Shown piece after piece: positions 7,818 to 55,189 of a stretch of 64,000 nucleotides of DNA (within the stretch, counting starts at the first letter, position 1; each line of letters begins with the position of its first letter). The stretch comes from Octopus vulgaris (taxonomy: Eukaryota): NCBI GenBank assembly GCA_951406725.2, contig OX597821.1, forward strand, positions 6,200,001 through 6,264,000. The letters run 5' to 3'. Both the position numbers and the translations under genes were made by a program. Below the pieces are notes generated by a model. The model searched no databases, was not told the DNA's origin, and saw only the letters and a list, made by a program, of their open reading frames with translations.

Positions 7818-7882
7818 AAGTAGTATTCAACCCAAAGTTGGCCCAGCATTGTTTTTCCAAGGCCATTCAGCTAGACAGCAAC
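7818..7882 (+). CDS. TTC37: TTC37 exon 5
   Basis: ttcag|AA...AAC|gtaagt; VVFNPKLAQHCFSKAIQLDSN. Confidence 0.94.
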
Positions 7883-8133
7883 GTAAGTATTCATTTAATC
7901 TTTTATACTGGTTTCAGTCAGTCGACTATGGCCATGCTGGGGCCCTCTCTTCAACTGTTTTAATCAGTTACACTGATTAAAGAAGTTAGTTTGCATGTTG
8001 TTTAACTGACTCAGGAAGAAAGGTGAAGTTGTCCAAGCATTGAAGGACATAATTAATCAGAGGTGTACTAATTAATTAATTTCAATTTTACAAAGCTTTG
8101 TGCACTGTTTGCTGTTCTAATATTTGAACAAAT

Positions 8134-8348
8134 GAAAGCAGTAAGCTGACAGAAATGTTAGCACGTTGGGTGAAATGCTTAGCGGTATTTCATCTGTCTT
8201 TATGTTCTGAGTTCAAATTCTGCCAAGGTCAACTTTGTCTTTCATCCTTTTGGGGTCAATAAATTAAGTACCAGTTGAGTACTGGGGTGGATCTAATTGA
8301 CTGGCTCCCTCCCCAGAAATTTTGGGCCTTGTGCCTAGAGTAGAAAAG
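8134..8348 (+). mobile_element. SINE family B with 15 bp TSD
   Basis: Family head GAGCTGGCAGAA...GAGTTCAAATTC, core CTTTGCCTTTCATCCTTT-GGGGTC-ATAAATTAAGTACCAG; TSD AATATTTGAACAAAT at 8119-8133 and 8349-8363. Many other copies, e.g. ~6750-7175, 20550-20750, 24180-24480, 32310-32520, 39210-39620, 54363-54575, 59513-59725, 61495-61695. Confidence 0.88.
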
Positions 8349-8796
8349 AATATTTGAACAAATACTCATGGCTATAAGTGATAACTCAATATCTATTGCT
8401 GATGACATGCAACCATGCAGAAATGCATGCATCTTATGGTCTGATGACATAATTCAGAGCTCATTTGTGTGTTTTTCACATATATTGTTTAAAAAAAATT
8501 TTTTTCTCTGAAGCCAGTTTCTGCCGCAGTCTTTTCATTAAATTTAATTTTACATATCTATAAAAGGACGTAACCTGGACAGAAGCAAATATCTTGAAAT
8601 ATTCTTGTTCATTGCATCCATTCTGCTATCAGAATCTGCCAACTATTTAAAAAATAATGGAACAAAAGAATTTTCCTAATTAAGAAACTAATATATATAT
8701 TTATAGTAATGTTAAGATAACAAAAGAATGAAAGAGACCTCGATGTTATGTAAATAGAGGAATTTATCTGTAATATAATATATGACAATTTTTCGG

Positions 8797-8871
8797 TTGC
8801 CATAACAAAACTCCAAGTTTCGGATGTCGGAGCAGAAACCTGCACCGGCATCTCTTCAGTTATCGAGGCAA
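8797..8871 (-). ncRNA. Type I hammerhead ribozyme motif (antisense copy)
   Basis: Inverted copy of the above with the same core; differences give G-U wobbles in stem I and an extra pair in stem II (CGG/CCG). Confidence 0.7.
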
Positions 8872-8892
8872 TCAAAATATAGCATACTTTGA

Positions 8893-8968
8893 TTGCCTCA
8901 AATAACTGAAGAGATGCCAGTGCAGGTTTCTGCTCCGACATCCGAAACTTGGAGTTTTATTATGGCAA
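8893..8968 (+). ncRNA. Type I hammerhead ribozyme motif (sense to the TTC37 pre-mRNA)
   Basis: Stem I UUGCC/GGCAA and AAUAA/UUAUU; core CUGAAGA 8906-8912; stem II GAUG..GCAG-GUUU-CUGC..CAUC; GAAA 8944-8947; stem III ACU-UGG-AGU; NUH triplet GUU 8954-8956. Confidence 0.7.
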
Positions 8969-9229
8969 CCGAATAATTGTCACATATTATATGTATAAAA
9001 TGTGTGTGTGTATGTATGTGTGTGTGTGTGTGTGAATGTATGTGTGCATATACCATATTTACTCATGTATGAGTTGGTTGCACTATTTTAATGGGAAAAC
9101 CGGGGTTTGACTTAGACACAAGACAAAATTAAAACTATGAAGGGAAGAAATTTTGTACCAAGATTTAATAATAAATTAGGGTTGTAGCTTATACACAAGT
9201 AATTATACACAAGTAATTACAGTATGTCT

Positions 9230-9284
<55 letters not shown>

Positions 9285-9492
9285 TGCGTGTGTATGTGTG
9301 TGCATGTGAAGGTTTATGTATATATGAAATCTGAAGGAGATTTGGTTGCTATTTTTTGCAAATTGATTGACTATATAGAGGTTTCTTAGTTGGCTTATGC
9401 ATGTGTGTGCATGAGAGAGAGAGAGAGAGAGAATATCATTATATATGTATGTTTATATAAATATTTTTGCATATATAATATTTCTATTATAG

Positions 9493-9549
9493 AATGTTGT
9501 GCCCTGGACAAATTTAGGAGCCCTTTACCTGCGAAATCAAAATCTCCTG
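9493..9549 (+). CDS. TTC37: TTC37 exon 6
   Basis: tatag|AAT...CTG|gtaagt; NVVPWTNLGALYLRNQNLL. Confidence 0.94.
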
Positions 9550-15236: not shown

Positions 15237-15285
<49 letters not shown>

Positions 15286-15450
15286 TATACACGACAGGCT
15301 TCTTTCAGTTTCTGTCTCCCAAATCCACTCACAAGGCATTGGTTAGCCTGAGGCTATAGTAGAAGACACTTGACCAAGGTGCCACGCAGTGGGACTGAAC
15401 CCGGAACCATGGGGTTAGTAAGCAAGCTACTTACCACACAGCCTGCACCT
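14949..15450 (-). mobile_element. SINE family A
   Basis: Full copy with expanded (TA)n tract. Confidence 0.88.
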
Positions 15451-15779
15451 TCACTTCCTTTAAGTGAGTGGTTTTCAACTGGGGTCCAAATGGCCCCTGA
15501 AGATCCATATAAGATTTTTTGGGGGCTCACATAACAAAACAGTAAAATGGGGATCCACAATTGTATTTTAAGGGCCCCAGAAAAAAAAATTTTGCTTTAG
15601 ATGTCTGTATTGGTATGTATTGCAAGAAACAGTTAGGTTTCATTCTCTAACATTTTACATAGTTTGAACTACACAAGAGAATGTTGAAAAACAAAATAGG
15701 TGTTTTGAAAGAAGTTTCAATAAAACTTATTCCTAAACACCAAATGGCAATGAGGTTCTACCAGAATAAAATAGTAATA

Positions 15780-16175
15780 GGCGCAGGAGTGGCTGTGTGG
15801 TAAGTAACTTGCTAACCAACCACATGGTTCCGGGTTCAGTCCCACTGCGTGGCATCTTGGGCAAGTGTCTTCTGCTATAGCCCCGGGCCGACCAATGCCT
15901 TGTGAGTCGATTTGGTAGATGGAAACTGAAAGAAGCCTGTCGTATATATGTATATATATGTGTGTGTGTTTGTGTGTCTGTGTTTGTCCCCCTGGCATTG
16001 CTTGACAACCGATGCTGGTGTGTTTACGTCCCCGTCACTTAGTGGTTCGGCAAAAGAGACTGATAGAATAAGTACTGGGCTTACAAAGAATAAGTCCCAT
16101 GGTCGATTTGCTCGACTAAAGGCGGTGCTCCAGCATGGCCGCAGTCAAATGACTGAAATAAGTAAAAGAGTAAAA
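15780..16175 (+). mobile_element. SINE family A, inserted in an hAT-like MITE
   Basis: Full CpG-rich copy; interrupts the MITE at 15466-16210. Confidence 0.9.
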
Positions 16176-23790: not shown

Positions 23791-25161
23791 GTGTGTATTA
23801 ACTTTTATGAATACTTTTTGCTTGTATTAATTCCATTTGGATTTTAATCTTGGAGTTGCTTTATAAAGCCCATCCACAGATATTGGCTATCAGATACTAT
23901 ATTGAGGGAATGGTGAAAAGTTCCTGGCTTTAAGTGTATTGCAAAATGCCTCGATGGAGGCCTGACCTTCTGAGTTCTTTTACAGGGCTTAGAAAAACTG
24001 AAGGACTGCTGCAATAAGTGTGTGAATCTGAGAGGGGAATATGTTGAATAAAATCATAATCAACTGATCCTCCTGTATTTTCTTTTACCCAAACCCAGGA
24101 ACTTTTCAGTACCCCCCCGTATACACTGGAAATGAATCACTTTACGATTGATACATCTGAAAATTAGTACAGTTTATGTAAATATCGATTTTGAGTTTTG
24201 GCACAAGGACAGCAGTTCTGGGTGAGTGGGTAAGTCAATTGCATTGACCCCAGTGCTCAACTGGTACTTATTTTATCCATCCCGTAAGGATAAAAGGCAA
24301 ATTGACCTTGGCAGAATTTGAACTCAGAATGTAAAGACGGATGGAATGCCACAGAGCATTTTGCACAGCTTGCTAACGATCCTTCCAGCTCACTGCCTTA
24401 TTTCATATAAATATTGATTTCAAATTTCGACACAAGGCCAGCAATTTCGTGGGAGAGGTAAAATTGATTACATCGACCTCAGTACTCATCATCATCATCC
24501 TCATCATTTAATGTCTGCTTTCCATGCTGGTATGGGTTGGACGGTTTGACTGAAGACTGGCGAACCAGATGGCTGCTCCAGGATCTAATCTGATCTGGCA
24601 GAGTTTCTACAGCTGGATGCCCTTCCTAACGCCCAACTCCAAAAGAATGAAAAGCAAAATCAACCTTGGTGGAATTTGAACTCAGAGTGTAAAGACTGAC
24701 AAAATGTCACTCAGCATTTTGCCTCTTGTGCTAACAATTCTGTCAGCTCCATGACTTAGCGTCGCCTGACTAGCACTTGTGCTGGTGGCACGTGAAACAT
24801 TCGAGCAAGGTCGTCACCAGTGCCGCTGGACTGGCTCCTGTGCAGGTGCACATAAAAAGCACCATTTGGGCGTGGCCATTGCCAGTACCACCAAACTGGC
24901 CCTCGTGCCAGTGGTACGTAAAAGCACCTACTACACTCTTGGAGTGGTTGGCGTTAGGAAGGGCATCCAGCTGTAGAAACTCTGCCAGATCAGATTGGAT
25001 TCTGGTTCGCCAGTCCTCAGTCAAATCGTCCAACCCATGCTAGCATGGAAAGCAGACATTAAACGATGATGATTAACAAAAGAAACAGAGTGGCACTTTA
25101 CCAGAAGATCATTCTATAAACTTGATGAGTTGATATTTCCCAGTATTGCTTAAATAATATT

Positions 25162-38318: not shown

Positions 38319-40044
38319 GTAAGTACCTTTTTTTTTATATTTTGTGCCAGTACCATGTGAAATGTGCTTGTTCTGAGGATGCATAAATGCACACGTCTGT
38401 GGCACGTGAAAACCACCCAGTACACCCTTGTAAAGTGGTTGGCATTAGGAAGGACATCCAGCCATAGAAACCAAACCAAAATAGATAAGTGGAGTCTGGC
38501 CGGCTTCCCATCTGGACAGCTTCCTGTCTGGCCAGTTTCCCTGTCTGGCCAGTTTCCCTGTCTGGCCAGCTCCTGTCAAACCATCCAACCCATGCCAGTA
38601 TGGAAAACAAAATGTGAAACAGAGATGATGATGAGGCGATTGGGCATGGCCATTTGGATGCTGATGATTTGACATGTCTGACATTCAACCTGTTTTGATG
38701 GAAGTACTTTTTGGTACAGGGGGGCAAATGCACACACACACACACACACGAGAAATATACAGTGTGAGAGACATATTCATTCAGACATAACTAGATGCTT
38801 ATACACATGAACAAAGAAAGAGAGAGAGAGAGAGAGAATGAGATGAAGGGACATTAAAGCAAGGCTACAAATTTGCTTTGGGGACAATGTGTTATAACTG
38901 ATTAATATTCATAGGGTACTTTTTTTATCTTAGAAAAGATAGAGTCATGGCTGTGTGGTTAACAGTTTTGCTTTGCAGCCTTGTGGTTTCCAGTTTGATT
39001 CCACTCCACAGCACTTTGGGCAAGGATTTGGTACATGGAATCTGATTGAAGCCCATCATGTGTATGTGTGTGAGTGCTTGTTCATGTCCCTTTGTCTTGA
39101 CATGACACTAATTGTAAACAAACAATACTTATACAAGTCGTGTTGTCCATCTACGCTTTTCCATTTAAAATACGTCTGGCTTTTGGTTCTGTTTTTGTTT
39201 GAAAGACTAACACAAACATTGATTTCAAATATAGGCACAAGACCAGTAATTTTGAGACGGGGCTAGTTGATTCCATCGACCCCAGTTCTCAGTTGGTACT
39301 TATTTTATTGACCTTGAAAGGATGAAAGGCAAAGTCAACCTTGATGGAATTTGAACCCAGAATATAACCGTCGATGCTGCTAAGCATTTTGCCTGGCTAA
39401 CAATTCTGCCAGCTTGCCACTTTATCTAACACAAATATTGATTTCAAATATTGGCAGAAGACCAGCAGTTTCAGGGAATGGCGCTAGTCAATCACATCGA
39501 CCCCAGTTTTCAGCTGGTACTTTATCAACCCTGAAAGGCTGAAAGGTAAAGTCGACCTCAACGGAATTTGAACTCAGAACATAAACGTGGATGAAATGCT
39601 GCCAAGCATTTTGCTTGCCATTTTGAAGGCGGCGAGCTGGTAGAAATGTTAGCATACCAGGTGAAATGCTTAGTAGTATTTCGTTTGCTGCTACATTCTG
39701 AGTTCAAATTCTGCCAAGGTCGACTTTGCCTTTCATCCTTTTGGGGTTGATTAAATAAGTACCAGTTACGCACTGAGGTCGATGTAATTGACTTAATCCC
39801 TTTGTCTGTCCTTGTTTGCCCCTCTATGTTTAGCCCCTTGTGGGCAATAAAGAAATAAGCATTTTGCCTGTGATGCTAATGATTCTACTTGCTTGCCATA
39901 TGGAAAATCTCCCTCCATGAATTTAGTCTGACCCCTGCAAGCATAGTAAAGTGGATGTTAAACAATGATGAGGAGGAGGATGATGGTGCTGTTGATGTTG
40001 ATGTTGCTGTTGTCTATTCTTCTCTTCCTTGTCCTTTATTACAG

Positions 40045-43196: not shown

Positions 43197-44598
43197 TTCT
43201 GTGACCACTCTGTCAGGTTTTCGCCATGATAGATCGCTAGCCACTTTACCTTTTTCTGTTTTCTCTCCCTGTTTATTTCTGTGTTCCTTTCTGTCGAAGA
43301 GCATAGGCTTGAAACGTAAAAGACTTTCTCACTTCCCGAACGTTAAACTAATACATCTGTTTGTTGTTTACACTCCCGTCTTCGTCTTTTGTTTTCTTTT
43401 TGTAAATTCTCACTCTCTATATAGATATATATACATACACATGCAGACATGTATGTATGTGAGTGTCTATACATACATACACACACAGACATGTATGTAT
43501 GTTAGTGTGTGTAAACATACCTACACACACACACACAATCATACACATACACACATGTGAGTATAGCTGTGAGAGATTCCCAATAAATTGGTGCATTGTA
43601 CAAGATTATCTTTTGGTATTTATTGAGTGTGAGTTATGGCCCTTGATGCTGAGGTGGTCTTATCCATTCAATAAATAAACAAGTGATGGAAAGGTACCAG
43701 ATAAAATACCCAGAGTCAGTGTCATCAACTAAAACCTTCGAAGGTGGTACTCCAGCATGGCCACTATCCAGTAACTGAAACCAGTAAAAGAAGATATTTT
43801 TCTCTTTCTTTTGCTTGTTTTGGTAATGCAGAGTAAAATTGTAATTTTCAGTTTGTTTTTGTATCTGGTTTGCAAGATTCTTTATGTGAATTTGTGTGTT
43901 GAAACAAATTTTGTTGTATCTGGGGAGAGTCGTTATACCAATATCATTAACACATGCACTGGTTTGATTCCGCTCCTTTATCAATAGTTAATTAGTTAAA
44001 TATCCAACTAACTGATCGATTGTTTGTAAGTCATTTGTTTGTCAAAGCTTTTTCGTTGCTACTTGCATGCACACACATGTTGAGGACAAGGTCCCAAGCA
44101 GACCAGCTCAGCCTCCGTAACAGACGAAGACAAAAGTCATTGAAAAGGTTGCAAGTAGCAACAAAAGAGCTTTGGCAAACAAACAAAAAAAGCACAAATG
44201 ATTTACTGTTTAACGAAGTTAAACAATTGATTAGTTAGGTGGATATTTAACCAGTTGACCAATAATGAAGAATTGGGATTAAATCAGTGCATTTGTTAAT
44301 AATATTGGCATAATGACTGTCCCAAGATGCAACAAAATTTGTAATATTAACTTTTTTGCAATTCTTTATTGCTCCACCCCCCTTCCTGCTTCCCAATCTC
44401 AAAATAATTAAAATTGAAAAAAAAAAAAAGGAAAATGAAATAAAAAATTCTCATGGATTGTGCAAATGCGAATGTTTTTAAGGATTTTAAGAACTGATTG
44501 TTACATGGACAGAAAAATATGAGTAAATATTTTTAATGCTTTATTTTTTTGTTTGTGTTAGATATATAATTCAGATATAATCTTAATTGCAAAATAAA
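41940..44598 (+). other. Putative TTC37 3' UTR, end uncertain
   Basis: Follows the stop codon; AATAAA candidates include 42069, 42297, 43582 and 44593. Sequence alone cannot say which is used. Confidence 0.4.
43905..44341. repeat. Long imperfect inverted repeat (fold-back/MITE-like)
   Basis: Arm 43905-44066 pairs with 44150-44341, e.g. TTGCTACTTGCA/TGCAAGTAGCAA, GTTAAATATCCA/TGGATATTTAAC, CAAATTTTGTTG/CAACAAAATTTG. Confidence 0.85.
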
Positions 44599-53144: not shown

Positions 53145-53538
53145 TTACTCAAAGTAGCCACCCTCAGCTTCCACCACAACCTCAAAATGGCACTGGAATC
53201 TGGTGCATGTGTTTCTCACTGTGTCCCTAGGAAGATCTTTAAACATCTCCTTGATGATTACAGGTAAATTTACTGCCATTAATTTACCATGAAAAAAGTT
53301 TACCGTGAGGAAAGTCGACTGTGAAGAAAGTTTTAGCATCTCACCATTAATAATTAAAAACTATTTTATTGAGAGAAAAATGGTGAATTGATGATGAAGT
53401 TTCCTTGCAGTGAATTGATGACAGATCAGACATGCTCCTTGGTCTTGGCCATCTGCTTAGCCTTAGTTGTTGCAAGCAGAATGGTTGGTCTTTTCCTCAA
53501 CCTTGTCCCACTCATAGTAACCCATGGGGTTGCAATGG

Positions 53539-53806
53539 AATTTACCATGCTACACCAGACTTCACGGTCCATCATGGCATTATGGAGGTCCTGTTGCTGG
53601 ATGCCTGTATCCCTGGAGATTACATCAGGGTAGGAGAGTGTGCACCCTCTGGTATTGCAAGTAGATGGCTTCCAGAGGAGAAGAGTAGAAATTACTTCTT
53701 TTTCAGCTCTACAACAATGTCCAGCAAACTGGACTCTCCTACCTTTCACAAGAGATGACACAGGTGGTAGTTTCCCATATATTTGCATTTTGGTTGGATA
53801 GCGCTT
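53539..53806 (-). mobile_element. LINE ORF 3' fragment (RTE-like) with 17 bp TSD
   Basis: YPTKMQIYGKLPPVSSLVKGRRVQFAGHCCRAEKE..LLLWKP..DTG..AMMDREVW; flanked by CCATGGGGTTGCAATGG at 53522-53538 and 53807-53823. Confidence 0.82.
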
Positions 53807-55189
53807 CCATGGGGTTGCAATGGGGGTAATTAGGAAGCCAGAAATTGAGGTTGGTAATGCCATAGAAATTTTCCAACAACCACTTCTGACTCTTTCTGGA
53901 AGTATGGCGAGGAGCTGAATCCTGCTGCCACACATATGGCCTTCCAGCAACAACCCTCTCCAGCCAATGTTTGACCACAGTCTTCAATAATTTCACGTAA
54001 CTGTCTGAACTGAACCCGAGGCCCTGTTTAACCCTTTAGCATTCAGATTATTCTGTAAAATGTAAAGCTTATGTATTCACACCATGTAAAATTAATCTTG
54101 CATCATTTCATGGCTTTGAGATTTCAATGATGTGATTGTTTATTTTTAAAATGACACAATAAGACAGCTATGAATGACCATATCTGACTAGTTTGAACAT
54201 AAAATAGGTAGAATATTTTGGCCGGATATGGCCGGTTTAAACACTAAAGGGTTGGGGATGAATTTCAGCATGAGGATGCCCTCAGAATGCCTGCTGTGTC
54301 CCTTCCTTCTGGCCACAGCTTCGTAGTCTCTGTTGCAGTTGTCCGTATTACACCTCACAGTAAGGTGGCGAACTGGCAGAATCGTTAACACACCGGATGA
54401 AAGGCTTAGCAGTATTTCACCTGTCACTACATTCTGTGTACAAATTCCACCAAAGTCGACTCTGCCTTTCATCCTTCGTGATCGATAAATCAAGTACCAG
54501 TTGCGTACTATGGTTGATGTAATCGACTATGCCCCCCCCTCCAAATTTCAGGCCTTGTGCCTATGGTAGAAAGGATTTTACATCTTTCAGTCTTTACAAT
54601 GTTCACAGAACATTGAGCAGCTGTCCTGATGTTGGCATTTTGATGTCCAGCACAAATCATCATGACACAGGTGACACTATACCAATATTCAGATGGTTTC
54701 CAGTCCTCATTGTCAGTGAAGTTTTGTCAGCTACAACTTTAATCTTTATGCTCTCCAACGCCATTGACTGTTCACCAGTGTATTAAGCTGTTCCTGAAAA
54801 AAGGATACATAAAAAAAATCATTAACTTTAGCCAAAACATGGCTGTATTTTAACTATTTTTAAAAACTGAATAAAAGTTTTTGAAACTAAATAGAGAGAA
54901 TTGTATTCTTTTTACAAAATTACTTGATTTAAGAGCTAAACTTTTGTTTTTTTTTATATTTCTATTGTAATTTATTTTGTTTAAATCTTAATTTCTGTAT
55001 ATGTCACATAGCCTCACAATTGTTCCATTATGAATCTGGCAGCCGCTGTGTAAGAAAGGGTTAACTTTTTGACACACACATTAGTATGAAGAATGGTTTT
55101 ATATTCAGTAGAAGCTGCCTTATCTTGTAAGGCTAACAGCAAACAGTTTTATTTCAAGCAATTCGAATGAAAAATTAGAGGCTTCATGC

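Follow-up and report, generated by a model that had tools for sequence, protein, structure and literature searches.

The palindrome in an intron of the SKI3/TTC37 gene is, in all probability, an arrangement of two truncated, head-to-head copies of a very abundant hammerhead-bearing repeat, only one of them tailed, and represents a likely inert stub of a Penelope-like element (PLE) whose transcript is predicted to close into a locked hairpin. Positions given here are those of the 64-kb window, the whole stretch of DNA that was analysed. As it stands the locus is of little importance, being one more fold-back stub of the kind described for PLEs. The family has some modest value. At least four related organisms harbour it in great abundance, and its hammerhead variant, with a stem II bulge on the 3' side, escapes Rfam. 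Its thousands of copies provide break points that could be used to test the priming of the inverted copy and whether hammerhead cleavage sets template ends in vivo.

Exons on either side of the intron align with human SKI3 (chain 9G8O_B, residues 769-840, 846-861 and 884-905 of 1568), and these matches bear out the host gene named in the preliminary description of this DNA. The exon upstream of the host intron (7818-7882, plus strand) has residues 846-861 as its best match (E 5.5e-5). The downstream exon (9493-9549, plus strand), too short for a search, was recognized by eye from its splice sites and open frame, and the exon after it matches residues 884-905. The host intron, with splice sites also read by eye, spans 7883-9492, and the element lies ~800 nt from its donor and ~500 nt from its acceptor. 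It had been called intron 5; it is the fifth intron visible in the window and, by the SKI3 residues matched, lies mid-gene. The three upstream exons of the window rest on reading by eye, and a candidate exon at 629-727 found no match among solved structures. The same intron contains a short palindrome at 7953-7987 (16-nt arms, 88%, 3-nt loop).

The claim of a palindrome with arms of ~108 bp and 3 nt between them was upheld by a repeat search and by global alignment. The repeat search of the window returned one arm pair of 91 nt at 96% (8773-8863/8902-8992) and a second of 16 nt with 3 nt between (8865-8880/8884-8899); aligned globally, arms 8773-8880 (108 nt) and 8884-8992 (109 nt) differ by six substitutions and one indel. 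Each arm, read outward from the centre, does have the type I hammerhead layout proposed for it, with the conserved core (CUGANGA, GAAA, NUH) at a three-stem junction and stem I open. In the plus copy, where the sequence was read directly, the fold occupies 8893-8968 (plus strand) and consists of distal stem I (8893-8897/8964-8968), proximal stem I (8901-8905/8957-8961), CUGAAGA (8906-8912), stem II with one bulged C (8913-8943), GAAA (8944-8947) and the GUU triplet (8954-8956). Helix III (8947-8955, plus strand) is short, self-complementary and of the dimer type, with a self-duplex of -6.8 kcal/mol. The plus core runs from 8906 to 8956, with cleavage predicted after 8956, and the minus core from 8859 to 8809, with cleavage predicted between 8809 and 8808. 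A cis dimer between the two arms is impossible, as they lie on opposite strands.

A strict hammerhead descriptor matches at two places in the 64 kb, namely the two arms, which as mirror copies are not independent and count as one observation. In 100 dinucleotide shuffles it gave a mean of 0.08 matches, with one match in 8 shuffles and two in none. Rfam gave no match at gathering score for the whole window, and no hammerhead family among 34 matches at E<=10 for 8500-9300 (801 bases); the miRNA and sRNA matches in that segment are generic hairpin matches below the gathering score. Each arm searched singly has Hammerhead_1 (RF00163) as its best match over the full model length, weakly so (plus arm 11.3 bits, E 6; minus arm 14.6 bits, E 0.47). 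With a gathering score of 34 for this family, the covariance-model check proposed in the preliminary description formally failed, probably because the 31-nt stem II falls outside the model. No 3'-side stem II bulge is shown in the available part of Perreault 2011.

Contigs from public DNA runs showed the palindrome to be a single member of a genomic repeat of very high abundance. Among five coded organisms, 20 of 24 listed runs contain part of 8380-8995, and contigs were aligned to the locus at 80% likeness for four runs, with organisms A, B, D and E represented by a single run apiece (4404, 4329, 1620 and 3225 aligned contigs per run). Across the flank 8526-8679 each run has essentially a single contig, with a summed depth of 8-53. 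From 8691-8702 onward the summed depth climbs to 1e5-1e6, which in the four runs is 10^3-10^4 times that of the flank; it is not a copy number and is taken simply as 'very abundant'. Depth decreases from the 3' end towards the 5' end, ~10-fold between 8967 and 8934 (mirrored depth) and further upstream too, so that in one run (X1) it is ~500-fold lower at the centre than at the 3' end (1,618 vs 953,307). This gradient is as expected for 5'-truncated retroposed copies, with a contribution from the clipping of diverged copies. The repeat is thus dispersed, high-copy and 5'-truncated, and lies in AT-rich/(TA)n sites. Neither blastn nor nhmmer found other copies within the 64-kb window. A metagenome pattern scan for the core with its bulged C yielded 20 loci, about the chance number by a rough estimate, none of them similar to the arm (blastn, E<=0.1), and the family motif was found 0 times in viral and 0 times in prokaryote genome collections, where its presence is hardly expected.

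The copies also revise the anatomy of the locus, since the element begins near 8691-8705 and not at 8773. Fifteen of the 32 pieces among those listed (13,979 others) bridge 8773 with at least 31 letters on each side, loose contig ends before 8691, 8713 and 8719 are TA-rich, and the loose ends of other copies behind 8989/8992 continue with letters like those of the minus-copy tail. The minus copy (8773-8880, minus strand) is 5'-truncated, carries a type I hammerhead and is prolonged by a one-sided 3' tail of ~70-80 nt (8691-8772, minus strand), whose left boundary is uncertain within the TA run 8691-8705, the TA-rich insertion site. This tail is missing from the plus copy (8879-8992, plus strand), which is likewise 5'-truncated and is sense to SKI3. 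A loose end in run X8 behind 8877 indicates that the upstream sequence of the family includes the 'loop' letters; the match of X1 record 8 starts at 8879, and those of four X7 contigs (records 19, 21, 22 and 23) end at 8880. From this loose end and these contig ends it follows that the plus copy starts at 8879, that the minus copy extends to 8880 and that the two meet at a head-to-head junction with a 2-nt overlap (AT, 8879-8880). Of the '3 nt loop' described earlier the spacing is real, but there is no designed loop: AGC are letters of the plus copy at the joint between copies. The possibility of an assembly artefact is ruled out, each arm having its own changes relative to the other copies.

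Head-to-head joins are also found at other loci, so that the structure is a by-product which this high-copy family yields repeatedly. Of the 32 listed pieces, three extend through the centre, differing at 14-19 letters and containing 8-23 gaps; of the 15 joints among those listed (64 others), five pass directly from left arm to right arm, at differing points. Joints at 80% likeness may be alignment artefacts, and among the listed contigs none spans the centre of the SKI3-intron locus at high identity. A candidate 10-bp target-site duplication (8696-8705/8988-8997, one mismatch) is not significant against the control TA runs of the window, 46 of the 53 others being equally good; such duplications are optional in PLEs. 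Among other copies the tail stops in at least two different places, judging from the loose ends before 8691, 8713 and 8719, and a further end ~8 nt past 8992 is common; multiple tail ends suggest several reverse transcriptase (RT) start sites or subfamilies. Summed family depth was also seen to drop 2-3-fold between 8961 and 8950, across the predicted cleavage site, in all four runs. This drop could reflect copy 5' ends set by ribozyme cleavage or, equally, alignment clipping. The right-arm break points among those listed are, however, spread over 8899-8973. For PLEs, Frangieh 2024 (PMC11167929) observed no reads with ends at the cleavage site.

The link to Penelope made in the preliminary description agrees with the published PLE signature of an inverted 5'-truncated copy, a one-sided tail, a TA target and a dimer-type hammerhead. 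An inverted 5'-truncated copy together with a tail of 30-40 bp at one end is typical of PLEs (Craig 2021, PMC8557442), and head-to-head inverted pLTRs with an overlap and an optional tail have been described (Arkhipova 2013, PMC3846280). Here, an inverted 5'-truncated copy is joined head to head, and a tail longer than the published ones is present on one end only, that of the minus copy (8691/8705-8772). The PLE parent is inferred from structure, as no RT/endonuclease ORF could be linked to the family: no Penelope RT or GIY-YIG ORF lies in the 64-kb window, and the available Craig 2021 supplement (PMC8557442) gave no match. Four motifs searched in that supplement gave no match to the repeat, and the three text matches belong to other elements; line breaks in its files can hide motifs. 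The hammerhead repeat family was not found in the literature searched and may be catalogued in Repbase, Dfam or the 2026 O. vulgaris repeat library. In O. vulgaris, 31 recently active Penelope-like families are reported (PMC13282606).

The following sequence of events would probably account for the stub. The endonuclease of the element would nick a TA-rich site in the intron, as suggested by the TA-rich ends and by published PLE behaviour. Reverse transcription would then copy just the 3' end of the element (pLTR) and halt shortly upstream of the hammerhead; the truncation gradient is observed, and such halting is its presumed cause. In the same event, a second, inverted copy of the same template would be joined via the 2-nt overlap, with one copy ending ~70-80 nt further 3' than the other; the geometry is observed and the mechanism is presumed. 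Two RT start sites have been tied to the PLE tail (Frangieh 2024, PMC11167929). The two arms would thereafter mutate independently, as is seen in their sequences, and the hammerhead would not fold at the SKI3-intron locus.

Like canonical EN+ PLE insertions (PMC3846280, PMC8557442), the stub has a head-to-head inverted 5'-truncated copy, a junction overlap, a tail at one end, a 5'-truncation gradient and an AT-rich target. It differs from them in the absence of an ORF, in a tail of ~70-80 nt instead of 30-40, in an overlap of 2 nt instead of 15 and in having no significant target duplication. With the Hydra clade of PLEs (Craig 2021, PMC8557442) it shares the (TA)n target, a type I hammerhead with a palindromic 4-1-4 helix III near the 3' end, and a 3' end ~40 nt beyond the cleavage site. 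Nearly all Hydra families in the available File S2 of that study insert in (TA)n, and the 9-letter helix III of most copies is that of Hydra-2_aMil and Penelope-16_HM in the same file. In contrast, the stub has a longer stem II with its bulge on the 3' side, and assignment to a clade needs the protein. The sequence of Hydra-1_Obim is, by eye, unlike the repeat, and the octopus Hydra-1 and Naiad consensus ends in the available Craig 2021 material are different families. The motif AACGGT occurs in an upstream loose end of the family and, by eye, also upstream of the hammerhead in Hydra-1_Obim and Penelope-15_HM; it may be a weak hint of Hydra-clade affinity.

The resemblance extends to the metazoan PLE hammerheads of Cervera 2014 (PMC4209133), which have a long helix II, a short helix I, G10.1-C11.1 and a small palindromic helix III, and which occur in high copy number as dual minimal motifs on opposite strands. 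The activity reported for them is dimer-dependent and weak, and one tested motif had no activity as a monomer and low activity as a dimer; the helix III of the stub would be of this dimer type. Differences concern the unpaired stem II base, on the 5' side there and on the 3' side in the stub, and the distance between motifs, ~50 nt in the stub vs 100-700 bp reported. Non-LTR retrozymes (Cervera 2020, PMC7229834; Li 2026, 10.64898/2026.07.22.740005) are also short non-coding type I hammerhead repeats of likely PLE origin, and they often sit in introns (43.9% in X. tropicalis), albeit less often than intron length would predict. Unlike them, the stub is inverted and not tandem, and no repeating monomer of 150-450 bp was seen. 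The domesticated intronic hammerheads of amniotes, e.g. in RECK (PMC6155905), are likewise type I, sense and intronic, but are single, ultraconserved and unmasked, whereas the stub is a decaying member of a huge family and is locked by its antisense arm.

Variation among copies, read from pooled contigs and loose-end consensuses and not from aligned single copies, bears on the hammerhead fold. Position 8950 is C in 77-83% of summed depth and its mirror 8815 is C in 95-98%; with C at 8950, as in most other copies, helix III becomes a perfect palindrome around a central G. In X1 and X7, loose-end consensuses have GUGG/CCAC where the stem II tip of the locus is GCAG/CUGC. At 8961, C accounts for 55-82% of summed depth and can pair with the stem I G of the minus arm, and three inserts of listed contigs hint at a two-sided change in distal stem I. 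The fractions of stem partners are unequal (8924 is G in 32-52%, at its mirror 8841, and 8931 is C in 71-92%). Covariation of the stems among copies thus appears supportive but not proven. The hammerhead fold is likely to be under selection in the parent element, in whose RNA it is likely a working dimer-type motif.

At the SKI3 locus itself both arms decay. Compared with other copies, the plus arm has derived letters at 8887, at 8900 (with an inserted base) and likely at 8919, and the minus arm at 8782, 8791 and 8806; the sense arm is the more decayed, with one stem II pair lost and an insertion gained. As to the extra stem II pair of the preliminary description, the other copies make a loss by the plus arm likelier than a gain by the minus arm. 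The arms also share letters that differ from those of most other copies (8950/8815, 8961/8804, 8967/8798 and 8931/8834). They diverge at 6 of 108 letters (5.6%), and the flank contigs differ from the window at 1/388 (0.3%) in organism A, 2/388 (0.5%) in B, 6/343 (1.7%) in D and 23/~310 (~7%) in E. Arm divergence is about neutral, with no sign of conservation or homogenization, and the arms have mutated independently since the insertion. The left junction of the insertion is present in organisms A and B, the contig of organism D ends at 8692, and in organism E the flank contig stops following the window at 8668, leaving 54 letters unaligned, which weakly hints that this organism lacks the insertion. 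ADAR editing before insertion was considered, since the five transitions between the arms would be G.U on the minus strand, and was rejected: once polarized by the other copies, they are a mix of two A-to-G and three C-to-T changes on that strand.

The antisense arm is transcribed first and, as the preliminary description anticipated, the hairpin is predicted to close ahead of core synthesis. In minimum-energy folds of the growing transcript, pairing involves 14 of the first 15 plus-arm bases when synthesis has reached 8898, and 102 of 111 at 8994. The energy model, which ignores Mg2+, tertiary contacts and dimers, gives -165.5 kcal/mol for the whole hairpin, a cost of ~104 kcal/mol for enforcing the hammerhead fold, and populations of 2e-5 (plus) and 7e-4 (minus) for the monomer hammerhead fold in isolated arms. 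Masking is therefore real as a prediction and, given the pairing by 8898, the cost of opening and the low monomer population, seems to be lasting and not open to switching. On the SKI3 strand each of the five transition mismatches reads A.C (four from the alignment and a fifth by eye at the indel), and editing would tighten the duplex because inosine at such mismatches pairs with C. Five conserved hammerhead core positions are As, which editing in the core would strike. A-to-I editing is thus unlikely to be the key to unmasking. For hammerheads whose helix III is this short, a second sense copy is reported to be required (Cervera 2014, PMC4209133), and the SKI3 transcript contains a single sense copy. 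At most, the hairpin would be an unremarkable stretch of double-stranded RNA, removed with the intron by splicing and possibly ADAR-edited. Several inverted pairs of SINE-like repeats (15275-15959, 24497-25073, 39265-39793 and 43904-44342; arms 72-169 nt, 77-92%) were also seen in the window; these pairs would give intronic double-stranded RNA as well, and long hairpins are not unusual in this region.

Other origins for the palindrome have been weighed. That it is a non-autonomous element, retrozyme-like or MITE-like, spreading as a whole fold-back unit strikes us as improbable. A short, non-coding, very abundant repeat with long inverted arms would suit such a unit, as would the failure to find a parent ORF in the window or in the available Craig 2021 supplement; yet the centres differ between loci, the tail makes the structure asymmetric, depth at the centre in X1 is ~500-fold below that of the 3' end, and no head-to-tail joint occurs among the 15 joints listed (64 others). 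Retrozymes, moreover, are defined as tandem direct repeats (Cervera 2020, PMC7229834); here the copies are inverted and no tandem direct repeats of a hammerhead monomer were found, which speaks against a non-LTR retrozyme. A MITE or other fold-back DNA transposon is disfavoured as well, the asymmetric tail, several 3' ends and variable centres standing in place of fixed termini with terminal inverted repeats and a uniform structure. We regard it as very improbable that a single hammerhead repeat inserted first and acquired its inverted arm later, by a local DNA-repair fold-back duplication. The letters common to both arms and different from those of most other copies do imply one template, and the 2-nt overlap at the junction would fit such repair. 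The plus copy, however, has five upstream family letters missing in the minus copy, and the minus copy has a tail missing in the plus copy; because each has letters that the other lacks, neither arm can have served as the in-place template of the other. Such an arrangement is, moreover, seen again at other loci.

The preliminary description further entertained a self-masked ribozyme unmasked by editing or a helicase, with an inert transposon relic as its fallback, and it is the relic that the evidence supports. We give scarcely any credence to a stub domesticated as a masked ribozyme that would cut the SKI3 pre-mRNA once a helicase, a PLE protein or A-to-I editing had unlocked it. The core bases are intact in both arms and the left junction is found in organisms A and B, amniotes do have domesticated intronic hammerheads (review PMC6155905), and a PLE hammerhead that cleaved only with its protein is on record, though it is also described as dispensable in vitro (Frangieh 2024, PMC11167929). 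Against these points, opening the hairpin is predicted to cost ~104 kcal/mol and the sense arm alone would adopt the monomer fold at 2e-5. There is a single sense copy, whose helix III is unmatched to the second hammerhead-like motif of the intron (-0.2 kcal/mol), and the sense arm has lost one stem II pair and gained one insertion. The arms diverge at about the neutral rate, organism E gives its weak hint of absence through the flank contig that breaks off from the window sequence at 8668, and the splice sites are ~800 and ~500 nt away. Just as hard to credit is a recruited masked ribozyme that, its hairpin opened by a helicase, by RNA editing or by the protein of the parent element, would pair in trans with one of the many family RNAs via the palindromic helix III and cut the SKI3 pre-mRNA, retroelement activity thereby lowering an RNA-decay factor. 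A masked ribozyme, if true, would constitute a new regulatory link between retroelements and RNA decay; nothing in the data points there, and the inert PLE stub remains the preferred reading.

The second hammerhead-like motif, unrelated to the first, lies in the same intron at 8392-8480 (plus strand; core 8399-8433), is sense to SKI3 and has no masking palindrome. It comprises CUGAUGA, a 4-bp stem II with two extra bases, GAAA and an AUC triplet, together with a perfect 10-nt palindromic helix III (self-duplex -13.4) and a stem I with 5 of 6 pairs. A relaxed descriptor matches this motif and the two arms, and gave one match in 2 of 100 shuffles; Rfam returned no hammerhead match for the motif. 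A cross dimer of the plus arm with it was rejected, there being no complementarity in helix III. The motif is multi-copy (summed depth 11-35 times that of the flank; 10-19 contigs at 8434) and probably represents what is left of a decayed insertion from a different family. Elsewhere in the window, an open stretch of 185 codons (53429-53983, minus strand) is a candidate for the C-terminal part of a non-LTR retrotransposon ORF, which it resembles.
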